From the UHGV virus genome UHGV-0017337: DNA of 43,119 nt. One strand, 5' to 3'. The position numbers and the translations under genes are program-made. The notes below the pieces were generated by a model. It did no database searches, had not been told where the DNA came from, and was given only the letters and a program-made list of their open reading frames with translations. Shown in pieces: positions 41,959 through 42,463 of this stretch (positions are counted from its first letter, which is position 1; each line of letters begins with the position of its first letter). The DNA is from a virus.

Positions 41959-42442
41959 CTAATACAATGTTAGTATTAATTTTACAGTTAATGCACAACA
42001 TGCACTAATTTTCGACCACATACATAAATACGTAGCCGATAATCACTGTGATTTCAAATACTTGCATAAAAACATAGATTACAATAGGTATCTCCCAGAC
42101 TTTTATTTTAGCTCTGTTTACAGCTAATACACTATATGCACTATCTCTATATTTCTATACTACTTCTTATTTATATCTATGTTTTCTATGTTATCTATAA
42201 AAAGATAATAAAAAGAATAAGATAGAGAGGGGTTGGTTAAAAAGTAAACATGACGAAATCTATGTTAAGTATAACTTTAATGCACAACATGCACTATATA
42301 ATTCACAACGTGCATTAGCTGTACCAACATAGATACACAACGTGCACTAACAGCTAATACACAACGTGCATCTTGCACTAACTGCTAAAGCACAACATGC
42401 ACTAACAGATAATACACTAACATATAAAGCACATCTTGCACT
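41959..42442. promoter_or_regulatory. Array of at least 9 copies of a 19-bp dyad TAATRCA-N5-TGCAYTA (iteron/operator array)
   Basis: Sites at 41959, 41988, 42124, 42277, 42298, 42330, 42354, 42385 and 42424 (start positions). Example: taatgcacaacatgcacta occurs twice, identically. Confidence 0.75.
42155..42263. repeat. Dispersed ~108-bp AT-rich element, copy R2 (partner R1 at 24461-24568)
   Basis: Same 32-bp identical core and similar flanks as R1. Same orientation. Confidence 0.85.
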
Positions 42443-42463
42443 AGCTGCTAACGCGCGTTATGA
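42435..42463 (+). promoter_or_regulatory. Putative sigma70 promoter of the HTH-protein gene (-35 TTGCAC, -10 TATGAT)
   Basis: 17-nt spacer. The -35 coincides with the right half-site of the last dyad (42424-42442). Confidence 0.5.

Follow-up and report, generated by a model that had tools for sequence, protein, structure and literature searches.

This work concerns a viral DNA sequence of 43,119 nucleotides (UHGV virus genome UHGV-0017337), referred to below in its whole length as the window, and in particular an array of short repeated sites in the space (41945-42495) between two divergent genes, i.e., terS, which encodes the small terminase subunit on the minus strand, and a plus-strand gene whose product begins with a helix-turn-helix (HTH) domain. 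At 95-96% identity, the window matches Escherichia phage KarinMuster_Bas82 (Bas82) as well as phages Sasha, Sergei, Solent and AVIO78A, which are 9NA-like virulent siphoviruses of 53-58 kb. The central finding is that of a DNA-binding protein with a private array of sites: the HTH protein belongs to an unannotated family with two HTH domains in tandem, and natural swaps of its specificity are unusually clear. Judging from the genomes compared, the sequence of the sites co-varies with the N-terminal domain of the protein encoded downstream in at least six lineages, including one in which an entire block has been exchanged. The reading that we favor, at a probability of roughly 45%, is that the HTH protein is an origin-binding protein, that its sites are iteron-like elements placed around an unwinding element, and that the phage has two replication origins, as does phage SPP1. 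Such a dual-origin role of the array and its counterpart at a second locus is plausible; we infer the binding of the sites, the autoregulation discussed below and, above all, the origin function.

The array was delineated in a motif search of the whole 43-kb window, in which nine sites were located within 484 bp (41960-42443), starting at 41960, 41989, 42125, 42278, 42299, 42331, 42355, 42386 and 42425. A preliminary description of the window, made from the letters alone, had proposed nine copies of a dyad, TAATRCA-N5-TGCAYTA. All nine exist, but each starts 1 bp to the right of the position given there, and exact fits are seen at three of the nine (41989, 42125 and 42278; none is expected in shuffled sequences), while the remaining six deviate by one or two mismatches. 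When up to two mismatches are allowed, 20 strand-matches are obtained at 11 positions, as compared to 1.68 expected, i.e., far above chance. Nine of these positions make up the array and two are found at 24583-24664, with no others in the window, which bears out the earlier expectation that the motif would be restricted to two control regions. The core CACAACRTGCA occurs six times, every time on the plus strand (0.11 occurrences expected), and most site units carry a flank, (T)TACAGC, on one side. Because the core always has the same orientation and the flank is one-sided, the sites are directional and iteron-like, with a dyad symmetry that is partial rather than pure. Written out from the comparison with other lineages, the site type of the window is TAATRCAC-N3-GTGCAYTA. 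Clustered, repeated putative binding sites in non-coding DNA, as in iteron-type origins, are thus found both here (nine) and at the second locus (two).

On the terS side the first site, TAATACAATGTTAGTATTA (41960-41978; this and all other sites are given on the plus strand), sits inside the spacer between the -35 (41979-41974) and -10 (41955-41950) elements of a weak promoter-like site directed leftward, and the second, TAATGCACAACATGCACTA (41989-42007), is one of the exact fits. The third (TAATACACTATATGCACTA, 42125-42143), also exact, abuts the left edge of an AT-rich element, on the other side of which the fourth (42278-42296) opens the right-hand array; it has the same sequence as the second, an identity that had been recognized earlier. 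The fifth, TAATTCACAACGTGCATTA (42299-42317), is the best dyad and has its flank, GCTGTA, on the right, so this unit is inverted. Then follow AGATACACAACGTGCACTA (42331-42349), TAATACACAACGTGCATCT (42355-42373) and TAAAGCACAACATGCACTA (42386-42404), an isolated half-site, GATAATACAC (42408-42417), and finally TAAAGCACATCTTGCACTA (42425-42443), which overlaps the -35 element of the candidate promoter of the HTH gene. The eighth site lies inside a segment of 63 bp (42369-42431) that is missing from L018, a Sasha-like contig from IMG/VR, where the deletion runs between repeat units and removes about two sites' worth of array; the number of sites thus differs even among near-identical phages.

The AT-rich element between the third and fourth sites (copy B, 42145-42262) is a candidate DNA-unwinding element and contains three tandem 9-mers at 42176-42202 (TCTATGTTT, TCTATGTTA and TCTATAAAA), followed by A-tracts. 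A second copy (copy A, 24461-24566) is located between the minus-strand block of head protease, scaffold and capsid genes on one side and small plus-strand genes on the other. The element is ~110 bp long with an A+T content of ~80%, the two copies are 90% identical (42156-42262 versus 24461-24566), and the complete Bas82 genome holds exactly two. Copies A and B are the two most AT-rich 100-bp segments of the window (80% and 79%), for which the overall A+T content is 56.7%; among all 60-bp duplexes in the 43 kb, the least stable is found in copy B and the second least stable in copy A. An easily melted AT-rich element with three tandem 9-mers is therefore adjacent to sites at both loci, as in iteron-type origins. 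Across lineages with unrelated sites the element is kept at 75-90% identity (the segment 42140-42264 is 78% identical to 9NA and 75% identical to the Klebsiella phages); it has no match to an Rfam family and no significant secondary structure. Two subtypes of the element can be distinguished. The terS-side copy is mostly of the shorter type (ending ...ATAAGGATTTTTAGTT) in 9NA, the Klebsiella phage Carvaje and three public assemblies (L020, L025 and L026), while in the Sasha group it matches the long subtype of the head-side locus, which suggests gene conversion between the two loci.

At the second locus (region A), 17.7 kb from copy B, the order is element, two perfect dyads and promoter. The first dyad, TAATACACGTTCTGTATTA (24583-24601), has perfect 7-bp arms, and the second, TAATACAGAACGTGTATTA (24646-24664), is its exact reverse complement at a distance of 63 bp. 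The promoter, P_A (24686-24714, plus strand), is strong and sigma-70-like, with the A+T-rich TTTAAAATAATTC followed by TTGACG, a 17-bp spacer and TATCTT; its direction is away from copy A, and it is conserved in 9NA, Carvaje, the Salmonella phage SP069 and the Sashavirus BDX09P1. The centers of the two sites are located ~31 and ~94 bp upstream of its -35 element, outside the core promoter, and the spacing from the proximal site to the -35 element is not the same in 9NA as in the window, the difference being 6 bp. Small plus-strand genes accompany region A, which belongs to the stretch from a MuF-like gene (26246-27205) to the protease/scaffold/capsid block. Directly downstream of P_A is a hydrophobic open reading frame (ORF) of 22 codons (MIYYILAFMIFAAPVIVGIVRG, 24746-24814), conserved in BDX09P1. 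Three larger ORFs with similar N-termini (TTEEFITRAREVH..KYDYS-like), at 14735-15838 (plus strand), 31913-32788 (plus strand) and 23948-24367 (minus strand), interrupt structural blocks and look like homing-endonuclease-type insertions; the last of these separates region A from the head protease gene, two features that adjoin in 9NA.

The arrangement from terS to the HTH gene, i.e., sites, AT-rich 9-mer element, site array and gene, is common to every lineage, and it is kept in at least six lineages with site sequences that are unrelated to each other. The sites of 9NA read ATAACAC-N5-GTGTTAT, a motif found twice at its second locus; those of Carvaje are CTTACCAG-type at both loci; and in L020, L025 and L026 they read TAACAC-N3-GTGTT, TACCAGATGTGTA and ATATAAC-N6-TGGTT, respectively. 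The clearest exchange is found in BDX09P1, where identity to the HTH protein of the window is no more than 42% in residues 1-64, as compared to ~98% over the remainder of the protein; exactly the promoter and right-hand array that adjoin this part have been exchanged for a ACTATGACAGGATTA motif that is unique to that array in the genome. A scan of IMG/VR for this motif gave single matches only, consistent with chance. In SP069 (L012 281-1170) two family genes are adjacent, one for a stand-alone 69-residue N-domain of the 9NA type and one for a full-length protein with another N-domain type, and two site types, matching the two N-domains, are both present at both loci. Furthermore, similar recognition helices pair with similar sites, on the one hand in 9NA and L020, on the other in Carvaje, L025 and SP069_00445. 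From these alignments, the site sequence co-varies with the N-domain of the downstream protein, and N-domain, promoter and right-hand array together behave as one exchangeable specificity module; the sites of the array look like the putative cognate sites of the protein encoded from 42496. Other proteins do not follow the sites in this manner. TerS is 83-87% identical across lineages (83% between 9NA and Bas82), with an almost invariant N-terminus, and was rejected as reader of the variable sites on this ground, while the primase and the ParB-like protein are 92% and 90% identical, respectively, between 9NA and Bas82 without co-varying with the sites.

The gene of the putative site-binding protein starts with the ATG at 42496 on the plus strand and runs off the end of the window (42496-43119, 208 codons of its 5' part). 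Its family comprises Sasha gp81, 9NA gp84 and Bas82_0094 (PHROG 25538; no Pfam family). Residues 1-65 form the variable XRE-type HTH N-domain and residues ~80-185 a conserved second helical domain, after which an Ala/Pro-rich linker of tandem repeats, variable in length, leads to a conserved C-terminal tail of ~40 residues; the 7-residue repeat of the linker (EAPVARV) is present in 2 to 14 or more copies among the relatives (14 or more in Sasha). With a single sequence, AlphaFold2 returned a model with a predicted local distance difference test score (pLDDT) of 36, and the model used here is that from a 17-sequence alignment (pLDDT 88.2). The best structural matches in the PDB are all XRE/Cro HTH domains, the type of domain found in Cro/CI-type repressors, so the Cro-like HTH that had been assigned to the start of the product agrees with the prediction. 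The profiles of the N-domain and the central domain align in register (E=2.7e-4), suggesting that the second, conserved domain probably derives from a copy of the first that has diverged. A Foldseek search of the PDB with the whole two-domain model returned nothing significant, and a structural search of BFVD returned members of the family and generic XRE proteins, and no others. The family is tiny, with ~20 clusters among billions of proteins, and these clusters all come from 9NA-like phages and lack Pfam domains; no homologues were found in plasmids, and a search of IMG/VR for relatives of P0017 gave none. On a 4-kb contig (L027, 709-969) a stand-alone protein, P0025, is distantly related to the N-domain (E about 1e-4); its gene is located upstream of parA-like and korB/parB-like genes and is preceded by ~700 bp without called genes.

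An origin is favored because the easily melted 9-mer element and the cognate sites are the sole parts that the two loci have in common in all lineages, because there are two such loci per genome and many other early and late promoter regions are without sites, and because at the terS locus the element has sites to its left as well as to its right. In addition, the HTH protein has the layout of a recruiting initiator, i.e., a variable DNA-binding domain, a conserved remainder, a flexible linker and a conserved tail, and the replication module includes no recognizable origin-binding protein. In such a mechanism the variable N-domain would read the lineage-specific sites, which would act as iterons, the AT-rich 9-mer element would serve as the unwinding element, and recruitment of the phage's conserved primase-helicase would fall to those parts of the protein that are conserved. 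One origin would be found beside the gene of the binder itself and the other in the late region, comparable to oriL and oriR of SPP1.

A more far-reaching proposal, which we put forward tentatively and hold to be less probable than origin binding as such, is that gp81/gp84 represent a previously unrecognized kind of origin-binding protein, based on tandem XRE-type HTH domains, that serves two origins and is exchanged under selection for replication specificity. The conserved second domain and the C-terminal tail would in this case engage the AT-rich 9-mer element and the primase-polymerase (prim-pol)/SF3 helicase, and the repeated exchange of N-domain and array among virulent phages that are 80-98% identical would reflect selection on replication specificity, possibly through competition during co-infection or escape from origin-directed nucleases or parasites.

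The replication genes have to be sought in the relatives, as the window, by comparison with their genomes, is a contig of a ~57-kb 9NA-like/Sashavirus phage from which ~14 kb are absent. Its start (1-218) consists of a 30-bp coding repeat (AAAPVAAPTP) in the C-terminal part of the gene for a Gp2.5-like single-stranded DNA-binding protein, a member of the replication set of the relatives, and its end (43051-43119) of the 21-bp coding repeat (EAPVARV) in the middle of the HTH gene; with both ends inside coding tandem repeats, the contig evidently broke at repeats. In Bas82 the ~14 kb encode an exonuclease, an SF2 helicase, an NrS-1-like prim-pol/D5_N/SF3 helicase-primase and a ParB-like protein; the DNA polymerase gene is located within the window (299-2155). 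The absence of a helicase and a primase, from which the preliminary description had argued that a lambda-O-like initiator would be needed, is thus an artefact of the contig, and since the relatives encode both in the absent stretch, the argument fails. Neither was any similarity found between the HTH protein and lambda O or any known initiator fold. The origin that had been proposed remains the favored reading, but for reasons other than the helicase/primase argument.

A number of observations weigh against an origin. The modeled XRE/Cro fold is typical of transcription regulators, and to our knowledge no replication initiator is built on it; the HTH protein has no sequence match in Pfam, where Phage_rep_O, Rep_3 and RepA_N were among the families considered, or in the PDB, and its structural matches are all XRE/Cro regulators. 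The strong conservation of the AT-rich element could equally mean that it is a promoter, and the links from protein to sites and from protein to replication are drawn from genome comparison. Moreover, the prim-pol/SF3 helicase, of which ~160 C-terminal residues are without assignment, could itself recognize an origin, as does alpha of P4, and another candidate origin is found outside the window, in a stretch of 171 bp from which the two replication operons diverge (Bas82 40913-41084). The GC skew is of no help: its cumulative peak near the terS-side locus (region B) in Bas82 follows gene orientation and was for this reason discarded as evidence. Finally, although its N-domain is new, BDX09P1 (OZ035775 19107-19188 and 58278-58325) retains TAATACA dyads of the window type at the second locus as well as on the terS side, so that one protein acting at all sites is not a clean rule; recent recombination may have left this phage with orphaned sites, or those dyads may have another reader.

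Control of transcription enters already through the promoter of the HTH gene. The candidate (42436-42464, plus strand) consists of TTGCAC (42436-42441), a 17-bp spacer and TATGAT (42459-42464). It was present in the preliminary description, as was its overlap with the site at 42425-42443, but it is shifted by 1 bp and its -35 element is weak, matching the consensus at three of six positions; it falls below the threshold of the promoter scan and is the best candidate in a separate scoring. In BDX09P1, L025 and L026 better promoters are found at the equivalent place, with the sites of these lineages overlapping or abutting them, so that in four of eight lineages, the window included, the best promoter candidate has a cognate site overlapping or abutting it. 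One site of 9NA ends at the start codon of the HTH gene (gp84). The overlap of the promoter-proximal site with the candidate -35 element suggests that the HTH protein probably represses its own gene, negative autoregulation being the simplest reading, and the autoregulation proposed earlier is plausible on the strength of these alignments.

The strongest rival, possible but in our judgment less probable than an origin, takes this a step further: the same HTH protein would bind the same sites, which would form an operator field for a narrow transcription switch with effects on transcription only. The protein would repress itself and modulate P_A and the leftward promoters of terS and of the head-tail operon, the two loci would constitute an operator pair of the OL/OR type in a virulent phage, and the AT-rich element would be a promoter, an UP-element or bent DNA. 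The XRE/Cro fold fits such a switch, as do the sites at the best promoter candidates of the window, BDX09P1, L025 and L026, the nature of both loci as divergent promoter regions, the position of the site at 41960 within the spacer of a leftward promoter-like site, and a site adjoining the ribosome-binding site of terS in 9NA, L020 and Carvaje. Joint exchange of repressor and operators is, furthermore, classic in lambdoid immunity regions. The switch would nevertheless have to leave untouched no fewer than five further late blocks on the minus strand (terL, portal, MuF, tail and lysis) and several plus-strand early blocks, all of which must be served by promoters of their own and are without sites; with sites at two loci only, the HTH protein cannot be a general regulator of early or late genes, and a late-gene activator or a general early repressor was judged unlikely on the same ground. 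The sites at P_A, upstream of the core promoter and with a spacing that varies by 6 bp relative to 9NA, fit poorly to a fixed geometry, nine to ten sites around the least stable DNA of the window exceed what a simple operator needs, and no convincing conserved leftward promoter was found in the AT-rich element. A decision between lysis and lysogeny, as served by Cro/CI-type repressors, does not apply, because the 9NA group is virulent and lacks lysogeny genes (PMC4153490), and no lysogeny or immunity genes were seen in the examined parts of the window and of the Bas82 annotation.

We consider it unlikely that some or all of the sites have a different reader, such as the product of 27379-27573, the HTH protein's own conserved central domain or a factor of the host, with the co-variation being a result of linkage. 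The window-type dyads that BDX09P1 has at region A and on the terS side, its new N-domain notwithstanding, would be explained in this manner, and the perfect dyads of region A (TAATACA-N5-TGTATTA) do differ somewhat from the right-hand array (TAATGCACAACATGCACTA). However, the lineage-specific motif is the same at both loci in 9NA and in Carvaje, SP069 has both of its types at both loci, and at least six independent changes of motif that track the N-domain are hard to ascribe to linkage alone. The product of 27379-27573, which had been suggested as the alternative binder to the adjacent HTH protein, is a NinH homologue (PF06322, E=1.6e-18) and was rejected, because its recognition helix is nearly the same in 9NA, a phage with unrelated sites; a search of 19 kb of Carvaje returned no homologue. 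The co-variation seen in the alignments thus supports the adjacent HTH protein, but not the NinH homologue, as the binder. As regards the conserved second domain, the idea that it reads a conserved flank, (A)GTTwCAG, is suggested by the comparison of the sites but not claimed here, because this flank is not found in L025.

Of the genes that border the array, terS (41249-41884, minus strand) matches PHROG 51 (E=7.5e-12); its true start is the ATG at 41884, while the mechanically called ORF extends to a GTG at 41944. With this match and the ATG at 42496, the array does lie between minus-strand terS and the HTH gene, as had been stated. A conserved block, TAGTTTCCCACAGATACCCACGGGTTGTCCACACG (41911-41945), is recognizable at the same place in 9NA, L020, L025 and L026, and more weakly in Carvaje, though the neighboring sites differ; from its conservation, it could be the promoter of terS or a recognition sequence for TerS in packaging, i.e., a pac signal. 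In the window this block contains a DnaA-box-like word, TTGTCCACA; conservation of such words near terS was looked for in 9NA and not found, and a search for the consensus of IHF was likewise negative.

The position of the array directly upstream of terS also invites the idea that it is a pac region, where TerS-bound repeats start headful packaging as at pacL/pacR of SPP1 or the R sites of cosB in lambda. 9NA packages by a pac-directed headful mechanism (PMC4153490), the pac site of SPP1 overlaps the promoter region of terS (PMC6316719), and several GenBank records of relatives open inside the AT-rich element, at positions that correspond to 42160 in the window for Sasha, Sergei, PDP46 and AVIO78A, 42219 for PJ16 and 42241 for Solent, and at the right edge of the element for 9NA; these record starts may reflect a mapped pac region or mere convention. 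A pac region is nonetheless the least probable of the explanations considered, since TerS, including its N-terminal DNA-binding region, is almost invariant and does not co-vary with the repeats, and since the second locus with motif and element (24461-24664), 17.7 kb away, would mean a second pac where a single site is expected. A separate pac signal, e.g., the block at 41911-41945, could share the region with the array.

At the time of the genome announcement in 2014, the molecular lifestyle of 9NA-like phages had not been studied in detail (PMC4153490), and our literature searches found no description of an origin, a promoter map or a regulator for this group. The comparison reported here defines a compact, conserved control module without family annotation, composed of a tandem-HTH protein, its private array and two easily melted elements, and assigns coordinates to what are most likely the origins or switch regions in the 9NA-like group, which comprises Nonanavirus, Sashavirus and the Klebsiella relatives. 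The natural swaps amount to a ready panel of at least six specificities, with one clean block exchange and one phage that carries two specificities, and this panel may be used to study how XRE-type HTH domains change their targets; it could also supply engineered phages with orthogonal parts for control or for use as origins. Should the origin reading be true, an XRE-based protein would join the known kinds of replication initiators.

Among known systems, SPP1 is the closest in overall arrangement. It has two origins, each with direct repeats as well as an AT-rich unwinding element; gp38 binds to both, and oriR is found alongside moron genes in a segment by which the virion-assembly genes are interrupted (PMC6316719). 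Both SPP1 and the present group are virulent pac-type siphoviruses with two loci where repeated sites lie beside an AT-rich element (here from sequence), one locus being at the gene of the binder and the other in the late region amid virion-assembly genes. In contrast to this likeness, the HTH protein has no detectable similarity in sequence or fold to gp38, oriL is found inside gene 38 while the array here is upstream of the HTH gene, and SPP1 uses a DnaB-type helicase supplied by a loader while the helicases of this phage are of the SF2 and prim-pol/SF3 types.

The origins bound by lambda O and by plasmid Rep proteins (P1 RepA, RK2 TrfA) resemble the array in their ~19-bp, partly dyadic repeats beside an AT-rich region, and the proteins in having a variable N-terminal DNA-binding domain together with a conserved recruiting part. 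In plasmid Rep systems the promoter of the initiator is found among the repeats and the gene is autoregulated. The known initiators differ in being built on a winged helix rather than an XRE/Cro HTH domain, and in lambda the iterons are inside gene O. As for the fold, the POU domain and EspR, which appear among the weaker structural matches of the modeled HTH protein, likewise combine two helical domains of the DNA-binding type through a flexible linker, a resemblance of fold alone.

The lambdoid cI/cro genes with OL and OR share with the present system an XRE-type HTH domain, lineage-specific operators of 17-19 bp, an exchangeable module, two operator regions of one specificity and an operator over the regulator's own promoter. 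They differ in the number of sites, three per region as compared to up to nine, mostly co-oriented, sites here; furthermore, the present sites flank a conserved AT-rich 9-mer element, the core of P_A is free of sites, and the 9NA-like group is virulent without lysogeny genes (PMC4153490). For the exchange itself the nearest parallel is PLE, a satellite in Vibrio cholerae, in which the RepA_N N-domain and the iterons of the origin have been exchanged together repeatedly while the C-terminal part is conserved (PMC8263062). PLE is a satellite rather than a virulent phage, its protein is of another family, and the selective agent there is an origin-directed nuclease, but in both systems the DNA-binding N-domain and the repeats are swapped jointly and the rest of the protein is conserved.

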